Source of the DNA: a virus
Lineage: Duplodnaviria; Heunggongvirae; Uroviricota; Caudoviricetes
IMG/VR virus record: IMGVR_UViG_2778261463_000010
Coordinates: 1 to 15,679 of that record
DNA: 15,679 nt
Reading direction: 5' to 3' (one strand)
Each line of letters opens with the position of its first letter. Positions within the stretch are counted from its first letter, which is position 1. Shown piece by piece: positions 873 through 12,998 of this stretch. A program made the position numbers and the translations under genes. The notes beneath the pieces are model-generated. The model saw nothing but the letters and a program-made list of their open reading frames with translations. It was not told where the DNA came from and ran no database searches.

Positions 873-3134
873 ATGATCAAGTTATCTGAAAAAGGCGTGT
901 TTCTCGCCAGTAATAACGAAATAATTGCCGAAGAACATTTCACCGGCGAAATTAAAAAAGAAGAAGCCAAAAAAGGCACTATTGCCTGGTCTATTCTCTC
1001 TTCGCATAATACGTCCGGAAATATGGATAAACTTAAAATTAAGTTTGATTCATTAGCCTCTCACGATATTACCTTTGTTGGTATTGTACAGACCGCTAAA
1101 GCGTCCGGTATGGAACGTTTCCCGCTGCCGTATGTGCTGACCAACTGCCATAACTCACTCTGCGCCGTCGGCGGCACTATTAACGGTGATGACCATGTTT
1201 TTGGTTTATCGGCGGCCCAGCGTTATGGCGGTATTTTTGTGCCTCCGCATATTGCGGTCATCCATCAATATATGCGTGAGATGATGGCAGGCGGCGGCAA
1301 AATGATCCTCGGGTCAGACAGCCACACCCGTTACGGTGCATTAGGGACAATGGCAGTCGGTGAGGGCGGCGGTGAGTTGGTAAAACAGCTGCTTAATGAC
1401 ACCTGGGATATCGACTATCCGGGCGTGGTTGCGGTGCATCTGACCGGAAAACCTGCGCCGTATGTGGGGCCACAGGATGTGGCGCTGGCTATCATTGGCG
1501 CGGTGTTCAAAAACGGTTACGTCAAAAACAAAGTCATGGAGTTCGTTGGACCGGGCGTTAGCGCGCTCTCTACCGATTTCCGTAACAGCGTTGACGTGAT
1601 GACCACTGAAACGACCTGTTTAAGTTCTGTCTGGCAAACCGATGAAGAAGTCCATAACTGGCTGGCGCTGCACGGTCGCGGCCAGGATTACTGCCAGCTT
1701 AACCCTCAACCGATGGCGTACTACGATGGCTGCATCAGCGTTGATTTAAGCGCCATCAAACCAATGATTGCGCTGCCGTTCCACCCGAGCAACGTGTATG
1801 AAATCGACACACTGAACCAGAACCTGACCGACATTCTGCGTGAGATTGAAATTGAGTCCGAACGCGTGGCGCACGGTAAAGCCAAACTCTCGCTGCTGGA
1901 TAAAGTGGAAAATGGTCGCCTGAAAGTGCAGCAGGGGATTATCGCGGGCTGTTCTGGCGGTAACTACGAAAACGTCATCGCGGCGGCGAATGCACTGCGC
2001 GGTCAATCCTGTGGCAATGACACCTTCTCGCTGGCAGTTTACCCGTCATCACAGCCGGTGTTTATGGATCTCGCCAAAAAAGGTGTGGTAGCAGATTTGA
2101 TTGGCGCAGGCGCAATCATCAGAACCGCGTTCTGCGGCCCATGCTTTGGCGCGGGCGATACGCCAATCAACAACGGTTTGAGTATTCGCCACACCACGCG
2201 TAACTTCCCGAACCGCGAAGGCTCTAAGCCAGCTAATGGGCAGATGTCAGCGGTGGCGTTGATGGACGCTCGTTCTATCGCTGCGACTGCGGCAAACGGT
2301 GGCTATTTAACCTCTGCCAGCGAACTTGATTGCTGGGACAACGTGCCGGAGTACGCCTTCGATGTAACGCCGTATAAAAACCGTGTTTATCAGGGCTTTG
2401 TGAAAGGGGCAACTCAGCAACCGCTGATTTACGGGCCGAACATTAAAGACTGGCCGGAATTGGGTGCGCTGACTGACAATATCGTCCTGAAAGTGTGCTC
2501 GAAGATCCTCGACGAAGTGACCACCACCGACGAACTGATTCCTTCCGGTGAAACCTCTTCTTATCGTTCAAATCCGATTGGTCTGGCGGAGTTTACCCTG
2601 TCTCGCCGCGATCCCGGTTATGTTAGCAGAAGTAAAGCGACTGCTGAGCTGGAAAATCAGCGTCTGGCGGGGAATGTCAGCGAGCTGACAGAGGTGTTTG
2701 CGCGCATTAAGCAGATTGCTGGTCAGGAGCATATTGATCCGCTGCAAACTGAAATTGGCAGCATGGTCTATGCGGTGAAACCAGGCGATGGTTCTGCGCG
2801 TGAACAGGCGGCGAGCTGCCAGCGTGTGATTGGCGGTCTGGCGAATATTGCCGAGGAGTACGCGACTAAACGCTATCGTTCTAACGTCATCAACTGGGGG
2901 ATGTTACCGCTGCAAATGGCGGAAGTACCAACCTTTGAAGTGGGGGATTACATTTACATCCCTGGCATTAAAGCGGCGCTGGATAATCCGGGTACGACGT
3001 TTAAAGGTTATGTGATCCATGAAGATGCGCCGGTAACGGAAATTACGCTCTATATGGAAAGTCTGACTGCTGAAGAGCGCGAGATTATCAAGGCGGGTAG
3101 TTTGATTAACTTCAATAAAAACCGTCAGATGTAA
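873..3134 (+). CDS. ybhJ: Aconitase-family protein YbhJ (753 aa)
   Basis: Long ORF with aconitase-like Cys/Gly-rich motifs. ATG at 873 is preceded by GGAG at 863-866. The six-frame track's longer form starts at GTG 849. Confidence 0.88.
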
Positions 3135-3147
3135 AAAGCGCCATGTG

Positions 3148-3352
<205 letters not shown>

Positions 3353-3367
3353 AATAGTTAATTGCTC

Positions 3368-4651
3368 TTACTTCTTCGCCTCTGCAACCACTTTACTACC
3401 CACGCCGCGGTTATTGTATTCCCACATGCGGTTGTAGTTAGTGTCATTCAGATTGCGCTGTATTTCGTCGTTATCATCTACGCTGCCGGTATTACCCGCA
3501 AACGGACGATTAGAGATCACCGCATCGGCCCACGGTTTAGCCGTGTTAAAACCTTCGTTGATGGCGCTATCACGGATCACCACCTGACCGTTGGTATTGG
3601 CATCAACATCCAGCGAGCGGCCCAGTTGCGCCACACCATCACCGAAAGCATTGAAACGGCTGTTTACGGCGAGGAAACCGTAGTAAATGTTGGACAGCGT
3701 AGCCGGTGCAAACACATACGCTTCTTGCTGAGTACGTGAGTTCACCACGCGGAATTCGGTGTTATCGAACACCACTGCGCCGCGACCAGAAACGATATCC
3801 ACATCCCCTTCAATGTAGCTGTTGGTCACCAGCGTACGCGGCTGACGATTTGTTTCCAGACGGTTCTGCACACCGCTGTTGGTGACAAAGAAGGTGTTCT
3901 GACGACCGAGAATGTTAACGTTGTTAATCTGTACCTGGTCACCATCAGTACGCAGTGCCACCGCCGGATGGTTACCTGCATCTACGCTATCGCCCAGCGT
4001 GTTTTCGATGGTCAGATTTTGCAGTTGCAGGCCATTGTTTTGTGACCAGAAGACCGCAGAGCAGAGAACACCGATACTGTCGCTGCGTTTGCTCTGGCAG
4101 CTATCGTACATATACCACGCTGGTTTACCTGGCATATATTTGCCGCGCGGGTTGACGTCGTGACGCCAGTCGGCAGGGCTCATGCCACCATCAAGGGAAA
4201 GCCCAATCTTCACATCAATCGGTTTTTCACCTGTACCGTACAGAGTAATTCCACCCGGAGCGGCAGGGACATATACCGTTCCCTGATACTCACCAGGCAT
4301 CACGGCAATATACTGGCGCTTGTTGGTACGCTTGATAATTGCCGCATCTACCGCCGCCTGAATCGTGGTATGCGTTACACCTTGAGTGCCCGCCGGGTCG
4401 ACAACAAAGTCAGGTTGCGCAGGCAGGGTAATCGGGGAAGGATTCCACGCTGCAGCACCTGGTGTCAGGGATGCAAAATAGTGTTGAGCATCGAAATTCT
4501 GCGCTTCTTTTGCCGACAGAATCGGGCGAGAAGAGGTACCAGGCGCGGTTTGATCAGAAGGACGTTGATCGGGCGGGGTTGAGCTACAGGCGGTCAGCGT
4601 CACGCCAAAAGCCAATGCCAGCGCCAGACGGGAAACTGAAAATGTGTTCAC
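3368..4651 (-). CDS. ybhC: Outer-membrane lipoprotein YbhC (pectinesterase-like, 427 aa)
   Basis: ORF with signal peptide and lipobox LTAC. GTG start preceded by GGAG. Sits immediately chromosomal-side of the att core, as expected for the attλ left flank. Confidence 0.88.
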   Translation of the reverse strand: MNTFSVSRLALALAFGVTLTACSSTPPDQRPSDQTAPGTSSRPILSAKEAQNFDAQHYFASLTPGAAAWNPSPITLPAQPDFVVDPAGTQGVTHTTIQAAVDAAIIKRTNKRQYIAVMPGEYQGTVYVPAAPGGITLYGTGEKPIDVKIGLSLDGGMSPADWRHDVNPRGKYMPGKPAWYMYDSCQSKRSDSIGVLCSAVFWSQNNGLQLQNLTIENTLGDSVDAGNHPAVALRTDGDQVQINNVNILGRQNTFFVTNSGVQNRLETNRQPRTLVTNSYIEGDVDIVSGRGAVVFDNTEFRVVNSRTQQEAYVFAPATLSNIYYGFLAVNSRFNAFGDGVAQLGRSLDVDANTNGQVVIRDSAINEGFNTAKPWADAVISNRPFAGNTGSVDDNDEIQRNLNDTNYNRMWEYNNRGVGSKVVAEAKK

Positions 4652-4689
4652 AGGTTGCTCCGGGCTATGAAATAGAAAAATGAATCCGT

Positions 4690-4784
4690 TGAAGCCTGCT
4701 TTTTATACTAAGTTGGCATTATAAAAAAGCATTGCTTATCAATTTGTTGCAACGAACAGGTCACTATCAGTCAAAATAAAATCA
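4690..4784. other. attL: Prophage attL: att core plus lambda P' arm
   Basis: GCTTTTTATACTAA at 4698-4711 followed by GTTGGCATTATAAAAAAGCATTGCTTATCAATTTGTTGCAACGAACAGGTCACTATCAGTCAAAATAAAATCATTATTTG, which matches the recalled lambda P' arm, running up to the int stop. Confidence 0.9.
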
Positions 4785-5855
4785 TTATTTGATTTCAATT
4801 TTGTCCCACTCCCTGCCTCTGTCATCACGATACTGTGATGCCATGGTGTCCGACTTATGCCCGAGAAGATGTTGAGCAAATTTATCGCTTATCTGCTTCT
4901 CATAGAGTCTTGCAGACAAACTGCGCAACTCGTGAAAGGTTGGCGGATCCCCTTCGAAGGAGAGACCTGATGCTTTTCGTGCGCGCATAAAATACCTTGA
5001 TACTGTGCCGGATGAAAGCGGTTCACGACGAGTAGATGCAATTATGGTTTCTCCGCCAAGAATCTTTTTGCATTTATCAAGTGTTTCCTTCATTGATATC
5101 CCGAGAGCATCAACATGCAATGTTGTTGGGATGGCAATTTTTACGCCTGTTTTGCTTTGCTCGACATAAAGATATCCATCTACGATATCAGACCACTTCA
5201 TTTCGCATAAATCACCAACTCGCTGCCCGGTAACAACAGCCAGTTCCATTGCAAGTCTAAGCCAACATGGTGATGATTCTGCTGCTTGATAAATTTTCAG
5301 GTATTCGTCAGCCGTAAGTCTTGATCTCCTTACCTCTGATTTTGCAGCGCGAGTGGCTGCGACCGGGTTTGTTGTTATATGGCCTTCAGCCATAGCCTCT
5401 CGGAATGCATCGCTCAGTGTTGATCTGATTAACTTGGCTGATGCCGCCTTTCCCTCGTCTATGTATCCATTGAGCATTGCCGCAATTTCTTTTGTGGTGA
5501 TGTCTTCAAGTGGAGCATCAGGCAGACCCCTCCTTATTGCTTTAATTTTGCTCATGTAATTTATGAGTGTCTTCTGCTTGATTCCTCTGCTGGCCAGGAT
5601 TTTTTCGTAGCGATCAAGCCATGAATGTAACGTAACGGAATTATCACTGTTGATTCTCGCTGTCAGAGGCTTGTGTTTGTGTCCTGAAAATAACTCAATG
5701 TTGGCCTGTATAGCTTCAGTGATTGCGATTCGCCTGTCTCGGCCTAATCCAAACTCTTTACCCGTCCTTGGGTCCCTGTAGCAGTAATATCCATTGTTTC
5801 TTATATAAAGGTTAGGGGGTAAATCCCGGCGCTCATGACTTCGCCTTCTTCCCAT
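4785..5855 (-). CDS. int: Lambda-type tyrosine integrase Int (356 aa)
   Basis: Translation MGRRRSHERRDLPPNLYIRNNGYYCYRDPRTGKEF...REWDKIEIK is essentially the recalled lambda Int, with the catalytic C-terminal HxxR...Y region present. Confidence 0.97.
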   Translation of the reverse strand: MGRRRSHERRDLPPNLYIRNNGYYCYRDPRTGKEFGLGRDRRIAITEAIQANIELFSGHKHKPLTARINSDNSVTLHSWLDRYEKILASRGIKQKTLINYMSKIKAIRRGLPDAPLEDITTKEIAAMLNGYIDEGKAASAKLIRSTLSDAFREAMAEGHITTNPVAATRAAKSEVRRSRLTADEYLKIYQAAESSPCWLRLAMELAVVTGQRVGDLCEMKWSDIVDGYLYVEQSKTGVKIAIPTTLHVDALGISMKETLDKCKKILGGETIIASTRREPLSSGTVSRYFMRARKASGLSFEGDPPTFHELRSLSARLYEKQISDKFAQHLLGHKSDTMASQYRDDRGREWDKIEIK

Positions 5856-9038: not shown

Positions 9039-9175
9039 TGTTTGAGTTTAATATGGCAGAACTTCTTCGCCACCGCTGGATGCGCCTGCGCTTATATCGT
9101 TTCCCCAGTTCTGTTTTGACCGATTACCGAATACTGAGGAATTACGCCAAAACCCTGACAGGAGCAGGAGTATGA
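9035..9175 (+). CDS. ylcG: YlcG-like small protein (46 aa)
   Basis: ATG overlaps the rusA stop. Position and size match DLP12 ylcG. Short ORF with weak independent support. Confidence 0.55.
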
Positions 9176-9260
9176 AGTCAGAGATAACAATCAACTAATA
9201 CTGTTTTATTGATTTTTGCTTGTAATTGGCGTTCTGGTCTGATTTTTGTGGAGTAAGTTG

Positions 9261-9644
9261 ATGCGTGATATTCAGATGGTTCTTGAGCGTTGGGGAGCGT
9301 GGGCGGCTAATAATCATGAAGATGTGACCTGGTCGTCCATTGCCGCCGGTTTTAAGGGATTAATTACTTCAAAAGTAAAATCTCGCCCGCAATGTTGTGA
9401 CGATGACGCGATGATCATTTGCGGGTGCATGGCCCGTCTGAAAAAGAACAACAGCGATTTGCACGATTTATTAGTAGATTATTATGTAGTCGGTATGACA
9501 TTCATGTCACTGGCAGGTAAGCATTGCTGCTCTGATGGTTATATCGGGAAAAGGTTACAGAAGGCTGAGGGTATAATTGAAGGGATGTTAATGGCATTAG
9601 ATATCCGGTTAGAGATGGATATCGTTGTTAATAACTCTAATTAA
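9261..9644 (+). CDS. quuD: Late-gene antiterminator Q (QuuD-like, 127 aa)
   Basis: ATG at 9261 with GGAG 9 nt upstream. Cys-rich zinc-binding-like region ([12 protein letters not shown]...HCC). Position immediately upstream of the late region. Confidence 0.85.
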
Positions 9645-9659
9645 TATGCCAATTGTTTA

Positions 9660-9695
9660 CTAAAAATTATTAAAAATGGGGCGTTGAGACGCCCC
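9660..9695 (-). terminator. Intrinsic terminator on the minus strand, downstream of the porin gene
   Basis: Stem GGGGCGT/ACGCCCC (9678-9684 and 9689-9695) with a 4-nt loop, followed on the minus strand by AUUUUUAAUAAUUUUU. Confidence 0.6.
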
Positions 9696-9832
9696 CAAAA
9701 ATAAAGGGTAATATATAACAGAAGGTTTATATAGTTAGAAGCAAGGTTGTGCTCCTAAAGGAAGTGGCTTGAGGGAGCCACTTATATGTTGGGGAGGCAA
9801 AGCCTCCCGCAACATATCTTTTAGTAATCAAA
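9660..9832 (-). ncRNA. ipeX: Candidate IpeX-like small RNA / structured 3' region downstream of the porin gene
   Basis: Three consecutive stable stem-loops (9678-9695, 9762-9783, 9784-9817) in the porin 3' intergenic region. In DLP12 the sRNA IpeX is reported at the 3' end of nmpC. Boundaries not determined. Confidence 0.4.
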
Positions 9833-10915
9833 TTAGAACTGGTAAACCATACCTACAGCAACGATATCATCGGTAGCAACGCCAGATGCTTTCGTGAAAT
9901 CGCTCTTATCAATCAGGTTGATTTTGTAATCAACAAAAGTGGACATATTTTTGTTGAAGTAATAGGTTGCACCTACATCAATATATTCAACCAGGTCCTG
10001 ATCACCCCACGCACCCAAGTCTTTTCCTTTAGATTGCAGGTAAGCAACGGACGGACGCAGACCGAAGTCGAACTGATATTGTGCAACTACTTCGAAGTTT
10101 TGTGCTTTGTTGGCAATATGGTTATTACCAAAAACAGTCATGTTCTGGGTTTCAGAATAGGTGGTAGCCAGATAGATGTTGTTCGCATCATATTTCAGAC
10201 CAGCTGCCCATACTTCAGCATTTTGACCAGATGCATTCAGGCTGTTGTTACCGTAGATAACCTGATTATTAGTGCGGTCAGATTTAGCATAGGTTGCACC
10301 TACACCGAATCCTTCATACTCATAAGTAGTGGAGAAACCGAAACCATCACCATTAGCTTCAGTTACGTCAGTGCGGTCATTTTTACCCTGATACTGAGCA
10401 GCAAAGTTCAGACCATCAACCAGACCAAAGAAGTCATTGTTACGATAAGTTGCAACACCTGTGGTGCGACCAGTCATGAATACATCTGTTTGGGTCCAGG
10501 TATCGCCACCGAATTCTGGCAGAACGTCGGTCCATGCACCAATATCGTATGCTACACCGTAGTTACGGCCATAATCGATGGAGCCGTAGTCACCGAATTT
10601 CAGGCCAGCGAAGGCAAGACGGGTTTTATCTTTGGAGGAACCTTGAGATTCAGCGCGGTTGCCTTTGAATTCATATTCCCACTGACCGAAACCAGTCAGT
10701 TGATCGTTGATTTGGGTTTCACCTTTGAAGCCAAGACGGGCATAAGTAGTATCACCATCATCTGCATCATTAGAGGAGAAGTAGTGCTTAGCATTAACTT
10801 TCCCGTACAGATCCAGCTTGTTACTGTCTTTATTATAAATTTCAGCTGCCTGAGCAGACATCGCCATCAGTACTGATGCAGCTACAGCAGAAATTGCCAC
10901 TGTTAATTTTTTCAT
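9833..10915 (-). CDS. nmpC: Prophage-encoded general porin of the NmpC/Lc/OmpD family (360 aa precursor), apparently intact
   Basis: Signal peptide [23 protein letters not shown], then [16 protein letters not shown]...; Gly/Tyr-rich beta-barrel pattern; C-terminal ...VGMVYQF. The ORF track's longer form starts at 10975. Confidence 0.93.
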
Positions 10916-11341
10916 CGTGAGCCCTTTTTTTGAACTATTATTAAAAAATGATGTCACTGCGCGATAAATATTCATCTAATCAATGTGATTATTTCAAGAT
11001 GTAAGTTTTGGTTTCTCATTTGATTTGTGAAGTAGATCTCTATTTTTATCTGAACTTTTTCTATCGAATCCTATTCATGGCTCTTGGCTGAATAAAAATA
11101 AATCTATTAGCCAATTTATATTAATGGCTGTTATTTATAAGCGCTCTATAATTTGAAGATTCAATTTAAACCAGCTAAAAATAACGCTGGAAATTATTTG
11201 TTGGTTATTTGTTGAGATTTGCTTATGTATTTGTAGTGGTGTTTTCAATACTCGGTAGCATTCTCGCAAATATCATTTAGTGGTTTACGTACGTAAAAAA
11301 TTGGTTATGCTGTTAAGAGTGGTTACTTCGTCACACAGCTT

Positions 11342-11375
11342 AAACCCGCCGTCGAGCGGGTTTTTCCATTTTTTG
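11342..11375 (+). terminator. Intrinsic terminator-like hairpin plus U-tract upstream of the lysis cassette (possible tR'-type site)
   Basis: Stem AAACCCGC/GCGGGTTT with loop CGTCGA, followed by TTTCCATTTTTTG. About 130 nt upstream of the holin start. Confidence 0.55.
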
Positions 11376-11502
11376 AGTCTCGATATTAGCTGATAACCCA
11401 ATACCTGAGTTATTCACTGACTCCGAGTCTGTTACGTTTCTGCTTTTTTGCGATACGTTGTATTCCCTCAATTTACACCCGCTTTGTCTGCGAGGTGGGG
11501 TT

Positions 11503-11718
11503 ATGAAATCCATGGATAAGTTAACAACGGGTGTCGCCTATGGCACCTCAGCAGGTAGTGCCGGTTACTGGTTTTTACAGCTGCTCGATAAAGTCACGCC
11601 CTCACAGTGGGCAGCAATAGGTGTGCTGGGTAGCCTGGTATTTGGCCTGCTGACGTACCTGACAAACCTTTATTTCAAGATTAAAGAAGATAAGCGCAAG
11701 GCTGCGAGAGGTGAATAA
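11503..11718 (+). CDS. essD: Class II holin (P21 S-type pinholin, EssD-like, 71 aa) with dual-start motif
   Basis: Translation [24 protein letters not shown]...[15 protein letters not shown] resembles recalled S21. Met1/Met4 dual start. GAGGTGGGG SD. Confidence 0.88.
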
Positions 11719-12215
11719 TGCCTCCATCATTACGAAAAGCCGTTGCTGCTGCTATTGGTGGCGGAGCAATTGCTATAGCATCAGTGTTAATTACTGGCCC
11801 AAGTGGTAACGATGGTCTGGAAGGTGTCAGCTACGTACCATACAAAGATATCGTTGGCGTATGGACTGTATGTCACGGACACACCGGAAAAGACATCATG
11901 CTCGGTAAAACGTATACCAAAGCAGAATGCAAAGCACTCTTGAATAAAGACCTTGCCACTGTCGCCAGACAAATTAACCCGTACATCAAAGTCGATATAC
12001 CGGAAACAACGCGCGGCGCTCTTTACTCATTCGTTTACAACGTGGGTGCTGGCAATTTCAGAACATCGACGCTTCTTCGCAAAATAAACCAGGGCGATAT
12101 CAAAGGCGCATGTGATCAGCTACGTCGCTGGACATATGCTGGCGGTAAGCAATGGAAAGGTCTCATGACTCGTCGTGAGATTGAGCGTGAAATCTGTTTG
12201 TGGGGTCAGCAATGA
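11718..12215 (+). CDS. rrrD: SAR endolysin (P21 R-type lysozyme, RrrD-like, 165 aa)
   Basis: N-terminal Gly/Ala-rich signal-anchor-release segment [20 protein letters not shown] followed by a T4-lysozyme-like catalytic region. Start overlaps the holin stop (TAATG). Confidence 0.93.
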
Positions 12216-12673
12216 ACAGAGTAACCGCGATTATCTCCGCTCTGGTTATCTGCATCATCGTCTACCTGTCATGGGCTGTTAATCATTACCGTGATAACGC
12301 CATTACCTACAAAGCCCAGCGCGACAAAAATGCCAGAGAACTGAAGCTGGCGAACGCGGCAATTACTGACATGCAGATGCGTCAGCGTGATGTTGCTGCG
12401 CTCGATGCAAAATACACGAAGGAGTTAGCTGATGCGAAAGCTGAAAATGATGCTCTGCGTGATGATGTTGCCGCTGGTCGTCGTCGGTTGCACATCAAAG
12501 CAGTCTGTCAGTCAGTGCGTGAAGCCACCACCGCCTCCGGCGTGGATAATGCAGCCTCCCCCCGACTGGCAGACACCGCTGAACGGGATTATTTCACCCT
12601 CAGAGAGAGGCTGATCACTATGCAAAAACAACTGGAAGGAACCCAGAAGTATATTAATGAGCAGTGCAGATAG
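12212..12673 (+). CDS. rzpD: Spanin inner-membrane subunit Rz (153 aa)
   Basis: N-terminal TM helix plus coiled-coil region. Near-identical to recalled lambda Rz. Start overlaps the endolysin stop. Confidence 0.93.
12432..12614 (+). CDS. rzoD: Spanin outer-membrane lipoprotein Rz1 (60 aa), embedded in Rz in the +1 frame
   Basis: Lipobox VVGC and proline-rich [13 protein letters not shown], entirely within Rz. Confidence 0.85.
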
Positions 12674-12704: not shown

Positions 12705-12998
12705 TTATTGTGAGCAATACACACGCGCTTCCAGCGGAGTATAAATGCCTAAAGTAATAAAACCGAGCAATCCATTTACGAATGTTTGCTGGGTTTCTGT
12801 TTTAACAACATTTTCTGCGCCGCCACAAATTTTGGCTGCATCGACAGTTTTCTTCTGCCCAATTCCAGAAACGAAGAAATGATGGGTGATGGTTTCCTTT
12901 GGTGCTACTGCTGCCGGTTTGTTTTGAACAGTAAACGTCTGTTGAGCACATCCTGTAATAAGCAGGGCCAGCGCAGTAGCGAGTAGCATTTTTTTCAT
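12705..12998 (-). CDS. bor: Bor lipoprotein (serum-resistance family, 97 aa)
   Basis: Translation MKKMLLATALALLITGC... with lipobox ITGC. Matches recalled lambda Bor. Confidence 0.9.
   Translation of the reverse strand: MKKMLLATALALLITGCAQQTFTVQNKPAAVAPKETITHHFFVSGIGQKKTVDAAKICGGAENVVKTETQQTFVNGLLGFITLGIYTPLEARVYCSQ

Follow-up and report, generated by a model that had tools for sequence, protein, structure and literature searches.

The window analysed here, a stretch of 15,679 nucleotides, carries a defective Escherichia coli prophage of the lambda-like type. Over positions 9200–11300 it is 100% identical to several complete E. coli chromosomes, which have genes annotated as quuD and a porin there; gene coordinates were taken from the annotation of an identical E. 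coli record (offset 199 for this part) and agree with the open reading frame list of the window (Table 1). The two genes are convergent, and the 188-bp spacer between their stop codons is the hairpin-rich region that we studied. QuuD shares 78% identity with the Q protein of the Stx-type phage phi345 (933W/Sakai type) and is matched distantly by the solved Q21 structure, the porin gene is about 92% identical to the lc region of phage PA-2, and the holin belongs to the P21 type according to Pfam. The coding potential of the hairpin region is confined to overlapping open reading frames of 26–35 amino acids. A 70-amino-acid 'ORF1' annotated in PA-2 was treated as not a gene because the window holds no counterpart of at least 40 amino acids.

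Table 1 Features in and around the quuD–porin spacer, in window coordinates
Feature	Position	Strand	Detail and basis
quuD (Q), late antiterminator of the 933W/Stx-phage type, 127 aa	9261–9644	+	Pfam Phage_antitermQ, E = 3.5e-53
Putative relic of the PR′ −35 region (GTTTAC), non-functional	9655–9660	+	Left edge of the predicted porin–ipeX insertion, beside the Q stop
IpeX RNA region, 3′ untranslated tail of the porin mRNA	9667–9832	−	Homology, reviews, fold z = −8.6
Intrinsic terminator common to porin mRNA and IpeX	9667–9695	−	Stem-loop 9678–9695, then A-UUUUU-AAUAA-UUUUU
Hairpin 1, terminator stem-loop	9678–9695		GGGGCGT (9678–9684)/ACGCCCC (9689–9695), loop TGAG
Unpaired core, proposed antisense seed	9699–9727	−	Between SL-C and the terminator
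SL-C, fourth hairpin	9735–9758	−	9-bp stem, 6-nt loop
Hairpin 2 (SL-B)	9762–9783	−	AAGTGGCT (9762–9769)/AGCCACTT (9776–9783); 8-bp stem, 6-nt loop CCCUCA
Hairpin 3 (SL-A)	9784–9817	−	ATATGTTGGGGAGGC (9784–9798)/GCCTCCCGCAACATAT (9802–9817), one bulged G
Porin of the NmpC/Lc type, intact, 360 aa	9833–10915	−	Pfam Porin_1, E = 3e-153; porin in identical E. coli records
PR′-type late promoter region	11283–11369	+	Homology to Stx-phage PR′; just upstream of essD, between the porin 5′ end and essD
Late promoter −35, TTTACG	11284–11289	+	Alignment
Late promoter −10, TATGCT	11306–11311	+	Alignment
Putative late transcript start	A11318	+	Homology to Stx PR′
essD (holin), first gene of the late lysis operon	11503–11718	+	Pfam Phage_holin_2_1; annotation of identical record
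rrrD	11718–12215	+	Gene order table
rzpD	12212–12673	+	Gene order table
bor	12705–12998	−	Gene order table

The spacer is 97.5% identical to the quuD–nmpC spacer of prophage DLP12 in E. coli K-12, the published ipeX locus, with five differences in the alignment to MG1655, and 97.6% identical to the DNA downstream of lc in the phage PA-2 record J02580. In MG1655, where IS5 splits nmpC, its counterpart separates quuD from the 3′ fragment of that gene. The structured region of the window starts at 9832, directly 3′ of the porin stop codon and on the same strand as the porin, and the IpeX region extends for about 160–167 nt from the base after that codon to the U-runs past the terminator. Three reviews (PMC12197685, PMC5069750 and PMC8065619), citing Castillo-Keller et al. 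2006, describe a 167-nt RNA of DLP12 and PA-2 at the 3′ end of nmpC/lc that is made within the porin transcript, is then processed, and lowers OmpC and OmpF. Near-identity of the spacer to K-12 and PA-2, together with this placement, identifies the element as the known ipeX locus, and we take the minus strand of 9667–9832 to be ipeX almost certainly. An IpeX-like small RNA at the porin 3′ end had been proposed in a first-pass annotation made from the sequence, and the match to the K-12 and PA-2 loci and the position 3′ of an intact NmpC/Lc-type porin gene bear this proposal out. RefSeq annotation of MG1655 lists no ipeX feature, so the identification draws on sequence and the published papers; the stable RNA of about 167 nt and the lowering of OmpC and OmpF, not OmpA, are known from the literature only. 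The element was already known, and its finding here is a re-discovery. The spacer is present in 2510 of 5426 complete E. coli genomes, and the whole Q–porin–holin module in 36 phage records including PA-2. A search of Rfam gave no family match for the region at gathering scores and only chance-level matches at E ≤ 10; IpeX apparently lacks an Rfam model.

The window copy shares locus, strand and terminator with the IpeX of DLP12 and PA-2 and likewise follows immediately upon an NmpC/Lc-type porin stop codon. In K-12, by contrast, IS5 interrupts nmpC 58 bp before the stop codon, whereas the window porin is intact, as in PA-2, so that the porin promoter can drive synthesis of the RNA. Among the five base differences from K-12, the one at 9754 replaces an A-U pair of SL-C by G·U in the window.

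Hairpin folding in the spacer is well beyond chance. The three strong stem-loops of the first-pass annotation (hairpins 1–3 in Table 1) all read exactly where it had placed them and fold far better than shuffled sequences; folded alone as minus-strand RNA, hairpin 1 reaches −13.9 kcal/mol (z = −3.8), SL-B −10.9 kcal/mol (z = −6.2) and SL-A −23.3 kcal/mol (z = −7.2), and a fourth hairpin missing from that list, SL-C, reaches −9.7 kcal/mol (z = −3.9). SL-A consists of an 8-bp outer stem, a 1-nt bulge, a 7-bp G+C-rich inner stem and a 3-nt loop. For the entire 176-nt stretch the folding energy is −63.2 kcal/mol as minus-strand RNA (z = −8.6, a value matched by 0 of 200 shuffles) and −63.5 kcal/mol as plus-strand RNA (z = −7.4; equalled by no shuffle). 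Hairpin 1 with its minus-strand U-tract had been read as the porin terminator, and a terminator scan independently called the same site as a minus-strand intrinsic terminator (9695..9678). On the plus strand, hairpin 3 folds at −22.7 kcal/mol and is followed by CUUUU (4 T in the window, 5 T in K-12); this short T-run is the only one to follow a hairpin of the region on that strand, and the terminator scan left hairpin 3 uncalled.

We gathered copies of the region from IMG/VR prophage contigs, E. coli genomes, phage P7 and E. albertii, aligned 32 distinct sequences in RNA sense and scored an explicit five-segment structure. Scanning a genome collection with the AT-rich pattern AARGGTAATANATAACA returned almost solely chance matches, with E. 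albertii the sole true homologue among the matches listed. The copies form about five lineages: the window/K-12 type, a 92% type, an 81% type, E. albertii (88%) and the copy of the P1-like phage P7, which is about 70% alike and lies behind nmpC with ssb as a neighbour and no Q gene. The P7 arrangement links ipeX to the porin: the element goes with the porin gene rather than with Q.

Four helices, SL-A, SL-B, SL-C and the terminator, are kept through compensatory change. RNAalifold recovers all four from the 32-sequence alignment, in which 96.3% of cells are paired compared with 41–48% in slid controls. Structure and covariance across homologous prophages had been named at the outset as the check on a structured RNA, and 10 pairs are changed on both sides, as against 3.7 ± 1.4 in shuffles (0 of 500 reach 10) and 1–5 in slid controls, a count that represents few independent compensatory events because all aligned sequences come from Escherichia phages and prophages of about five lineages. 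The outer stem of SL-A is 100% paired in the 32 sequences with compensatory changes at two pairs, and its bulged base is variable or deleted among copies. The SL-B stem is kept in P7-type copies through two double changes, and five of the six columns of its loop are invariant, with a loop complement, UGAGGG, that resembles a Shine–Dalgarno sequence. SL-C carries compensatory changes at three pairs. The terminator retains its stem, in which G·U variants occur in minus-strand sense, around a freely varying loop. Single changes in the stems also discriminate between the strands: in the minus sense, 14 pair positions show G·U and 3 show A·C, or about 11 and 2 in a conservative count from which misaligned P7 columns were dropped. 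The C at 9754 of the window, within SL-C, likewise makes G·U when read as minus-strand RNA and A·C on the plus strand. Because G·U and A·C would be equally frequent in a neutral duplex, the porin-sense RNA is the selected molecule: selection acts on the minus strand.

The first-pass annotation had also expected the Q-dependent late promoter and its qut site in the spacer, and this expectation fails. A promoter scan of both strands over 9645–9832 yielded no promoter-like site, nor any on the minus strand near the porin 3′ end, and a PR′ homologue is found instead upstream of essD. Positions 11283–11365 are 77–78% identical to the stretch at the Q stop codon in about 300 Stx phage records, and in phi345 the corresponding stretch, with the counterparts of the −35/−10 elements, falls under the 'Promoter' and 'Terminator' labels of the record. 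The late promoter region further holds TAAGAGTGGTTAC, a strongly conserved early transcribed block that is a candidate pause or Q-loading site, and a hairpin with a T-run at 11342–11369, of which 11342–11363 is the sole strong plus-strand terminator call in 9100–11800. Weak isrK and Trp-leader matches at 11247–11369 scored far below threshold and were disregarded. The corresponding start in Sakai Sp5, 7 nt past TATCAT, is followed at a distance of 258 nt by a clear terminator hairpin, in agreement with the 258-nt PR′-to-tR′ distance mapped in Sakai by dRNA-seq and Term-seq (StxS, PMC7547250), provided that the two record versions are shifted by about 142 bases, as we infer. The window has a homologue of the promoter and first ~50 nt of StxS, the short PR′ transcript of Stx phages (PMC7547250), which lies outside the hairpin region; in Sakai the transcript extends over 258 nt as far as a second terminator, whereas upstream of essD the window has the first hairpin alone. 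In DLP12, published work assigns control by Q and RpoE to the lysis-operon promoter.

Alignment of the Q 3′ end with Sakai Sp5 suggests how Q and its late promoter came apart. Homology continues past the QuuD stop codon to AATTGTTTACTA (9650–9661), stops, and resumes with GTTTACG at 11283, and GTTTAC flanks both sides of a block of about 1.62 kb that holds ipeX, the porin gene and the porin promoter. Homology broken at AATTGTTTACTA and resumed at 11283 indicates that the porin–ipeX block (~9662–11282) is an insertion inside PR′. The left copy of GTTTAC would be dead because the ipeX terminator occupies the place of its −10 element. On this homology the Q-dependent late promoter is a separate element at 11283–11369, predicted to serve the essD lysis operon. 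We consider it probable that the locus as a whole is best explained by ipeX as the structured 3′ tail of the prophage porin mRNA, with the late promoter elsewhere.

The unpaired core between SL-C and the terminator is 61% invariant among 33 alignment columns (window 9701–9733), the highest proportion of any long unpaired block. Its plus-strand sequence AAATAAAGGGTAATATATAACAGAAGGTT resembles the ompC leader AAATAAAGGCATATAACAGAGGGTT, and the core is predicted to form a duplex of 9 + 15 bp with ompC mRNA over the Shine–Dalgarno sequence (−31..−7), in which 9713–9727 pairs with −21..−7 (15 bp including one G·U) and 9699–9707 with −31..−23 (9 bp). The same block can, by prediction, pair with ompF at −15..+9. 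Whole-length RNAduplex runs against long leaders produced meaningless end-to-end duplexes, and we used core-only duplexes with controls, and cofolding, instead. The core–ompC duplex reaches −26.7 kcal/mol (z = −4.4), an energy attained by 1 of 2000 shuffles and equalled by 2 of 40,440 non-self 66-nt windows of E. coli prophage DNA, both at one locus. The core–ompF duplex, at −18.8 kcal/mol (top 0.85% of background, z = −1.65), is only modestly above background for the window type. The corresponding energies are −11.4 kcal/mol with ompA, −12.5 kcal/mol with the start region of the window's own phage porin and −10.0 kcal/mol with the P7 nmpC start region. Cofolding full-length IpeX with the leaders leaves the four helices undisturbed and yields the same intermolecular duplex, with energy gains of −18.6 (ompC), −15.4 (ompF) and −7.1 (ompA), and the order ompC > ompF >> ompA is reproduced in silico.

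Pairing is retained in all lambdoid lineages and reappears in a different form in P7. The P7-type core (42 nt for the host leaders) reaches −26.1 kcal/mol with ompF, which 0 of 26,171 background windows equal, −23.4 kcal/mol with ompC and −11.5 kcal/mol with ompA; in a 57-nt version it reaches −19.1 kcal/mol with the window porin start and −10.9 kcal/mol with the start of P7's own nmpC. Its predicted duplex with ompF is nearly continuous, 22 bp over −12..+9, and that with ompC lies around the start codon. Two published papers deny that IpeX base-pairs with the mRNA of ompC or ompF and state that complementary sequences do not exist, and a 2025 review holds that its mechanism does not rely on complementarity alone; on a role for Hfq the literature is mixed. 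The complementarity described here contradicts the published no-pairing statements. In the original study, OmpA was reportedly unaffected, the ompC 5′ untranslated region is said to have been required, and the effect on ompC, not that on ompF, was reportedly independent of Hfq. This reported Hfq pattern and the specificity for OmpC and OmpF would be compatible with extended pairing to ompC and weaker pairing to ompF.

Readings of the region other than a porin-silencing RNA with a pairing core differ in how much of the evidence they accommodate. It is highly improbable that the spacer holds a plus-strand Q-dependent late promoter with its Q-utilisation site and a terminator. PR′ normally follows Q directly in lambda-like phages, and a −35-like TTTACT (9656–9661) stands 12 nt past the Q stop codon, but the position of a correctly spaced −10 element is taken by GGGCGT of the terminator stem, the plus strand has no T-run after hairpins 1 and 2, the promoter scan has no match, and a full PR′ homologue of the matching Q type exists further downstream. 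We also think it unlikely that the hairpins serve only to terminate or insulate transcription where the Q and porin units converge, with no trans-acting RNA. Hairpin 1 is a textbook minus-strand terminator, and plus-strand hairpin 3 with its CUUUU could stop transcription leaving Q, so SL-A may have a side role as a plus-strand terminator; yet such functions would leave SL-B, SL-C and the conserved core unexplained, in every helix the excess of G·U over A·C points to the minus strand, the P7 copy keeps the helices without a plus-strand T-run or a Q context, and published genetics assign porin-silencing activity to this DNA.

A further reading, which we regard as possible but doubtful, accepts the RNA and denies the pairing: IpeX would titrate a protein (Hfq, ProQ or a ribonuclease) or act indirectly, and the complementarity would be a functionless fossil of an inverted porin leader. 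The published statements denying pairing speak for it, three stable and structurally conserved 5′ stem-loops could be protein-binding sites, and the P7 plus strand looks like a porin start region (GGTAATAAATAACATGAAGTTAAA), which fits an origin by duplication. The complementarity could indeed be such a relic. Against a functionless relic, however, complementarity to both experimentally known targets is far above background, and neither ompA nor the phage's own porin shows it; it survives intramolecular competition; and it sits in the most conserved unpaired block, whose conservation argues against a purely passive relic. The lambdoid and P7 cores, moreover, differ, yet each is strongly complementary to a host porin start region.

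We weigh the antisense reading, in which IpeX would be a classical antisense regulator acting through its conserved unpaired core, contrary to the literature, as having a modest edge towards being correct. According to published accounts, transcription of the porin gene would be followed by release of its tail as an RNA of about 167 nt, and the freed IpeX would lower OmpC and OmpF synthesis post-transcriptionally, so that a lysogen would swap host porins for the phage porin. An AA|UUU at the porin stop codon fits an RNase E motif and is a candidate processing site, as read from the sequence only. The core would then pair with the ompC translation-initiation region (−31..−7) and less well with ompF (−15..+9), this pairing would block ribosome binding, and the 5′ stem-loops would mainly stabilise the processed RNA. 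On the antisense reading we incline slightly to the view that the lambdoid core is tuned to ompC and the P7 core to ompF and the ompC start codon, and, with similarly slight confidence, that the phage's own porin mRNA would be immune.

As an antisense regulator, IpeX would resemble MicF and MicC, the chromosomal antisense RNAs directed against ompF and ompC, in its proposed pairing over a porin ribosome-binding region. The P7-type core even has in common with MicF a 12-nt anti-ompF string, UUAUUUAUUACC, from which the window type differs at one base. Homology between IpeX and MicF was rejected, as these 12 nt are all that they share; homology to MicF or MicC goes no further than this string, and the region has no Rfam match. 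Unlike MicF and MicC, IpeX has no separate gene but forms the 3′ tail of a protein-coding mRNA, and its proposed seed is internal, just before the terminator, and not at the 5′ end. In this respect IpeX resembles RNAs derived from 3′ untranslated regions, such as MalH, with which it shares the use of the upstream coding sequence's terminator and a reported release by processing; CpxQ and SroC are further regulatory RNAs of this kind that share the terminator of their parent mRNA. IpeX differs from them in lying on a phage accessory block and in targeting host genes that compete with the product of its parent gene.

ipeX itself is a textbook-listed prophage RNA, and finding it again adds little; what the present analysis contributes is a position for PR′, comparative evidence on the structure and strand of the RNA, and a testable pairing model for a 'non-pairing' regulator. 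The layout of a widespread prophage module is clarified, with porin and ipeX apparently inserted in the late promoter and a predicted working PR′ before essD, a placement that matters for studies of how Q controls expression of the DLP12 lysis genes. For twenty years the literature has presented IpeX as acting without base pairing, and a specific 24-bp interaction predicted at the ompC ribosome-binding site, with pairing recovered in the diverged P7 lineage, makes this puzzle experimentally simple. OmpC is both a phage receptor and a route of antibiotic entry, and its shut-off in lysogens is of practical interest. If the antisense reading is true, the prophage accessory block would consist of a porin gene with a built-in antisense RNA against the host porins that it replaces.

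Alignment to Stx phages suggests that the late promoter of this prophage has been split by a block carrying its porin gene. Sequence homologous to the end of Q and the late promoter PR′ of Stx phages breaks off at a GTTTAC hexamer at window 9655-9660 and restarts at a second GTTTAC at 11283-11288. These two copies lie at the edges of a block of about 1.62 kb that contains ipeX, the porin gene and the porin promoter, and on sequence the block looks like an insertion separating the −35 from the −10 element of the late promoter.

The 3′ end of the antiterminator gene quuD also differs from its Stx-phage counterparts. In an alignment of Q 3′ ends, a 27-nt gap and a premature stop codon account for QuuD being 17 aa shorter than the Stx-phage protein. 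The last quuD codons contain an 8-bp inverted repeat (window 9600-9623; GATATCCG...GGATATC) that coincides with the onset of decaying homology to Stx-phage Q, and a terminator scan scored this repeat as terminator-like on the plus strand. At the other end of the block, a hairpin with a T-run follows the inferred PR′ start and is the sole terminator-like site that the scan found in the window before the holin gene essD. Its counterpart in the Stx prophage Sakai Sp5 lies within the 258-nt StxS precursor and therefore seems to be read through there; in the window the hairpin may act in termination, in pausing or as an aid to Q loading.

Features of the window and of comparison loci (L-numbers)
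Feature	Sequence	Position	Strand	Remark
Two ORFs (427 aa; 356 aa)	Window	within 3368-5855	minus	Same lengths as ybhC and prophage integrase of a related strain
Hairpin and T-run	Window	11342-11369		~25-50 nt past inferred PR′ start
IS5-family element within ipeX core	L010 (E. coli JB2)	about 1570
IS5 interrupting nmpC	L002 (K-12 MG1655)	2592-3786		58 bp upstream of nmpC stop
Diverged IpeX-like tail after nmpC	L009 (phage P7)	930-1132		Also in L091, L058 and L156

In the left part of the window, the ORF lengths match those of ybhC and the prophage integrase, and the prophage therefore seems to adjoin ybhC. Integrase and Q are separated by only ~3.4 kb, versus ~7.7 kb in the related strain, indicating that the early region has been heavily deleted. 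Rfam returned a gathering-level match to the REP-type element naRNA4 (3229-3299; 60.7 bits), flanked by a 761-aa ORF and the 427-aa ORF.

The porin–ipeX module has been repeatedly struck by insertion sequences, in both E. coli JB2 and K-12. P1-like phages carry a diverged IpeX-like tail 3′ of nmpC. On the opposite strand, the P7-type core resembles a porin start region with a Shine–Dalgarno sequence and ATG (GGTAATAAATAACATGAAGTTAAA), and this core has 12 nt in common with MicF. Within ipeX itself, the loop of the SL-B hairpin (CCCUCA; window 9770-9775, minus strand) is nearly invariant, with five of six columns conserved in all lineages compared. The loop is complementary to UGAGGG in the ompF Shine–Dalgarno region (−13 to −8) and is a possible second contact site.
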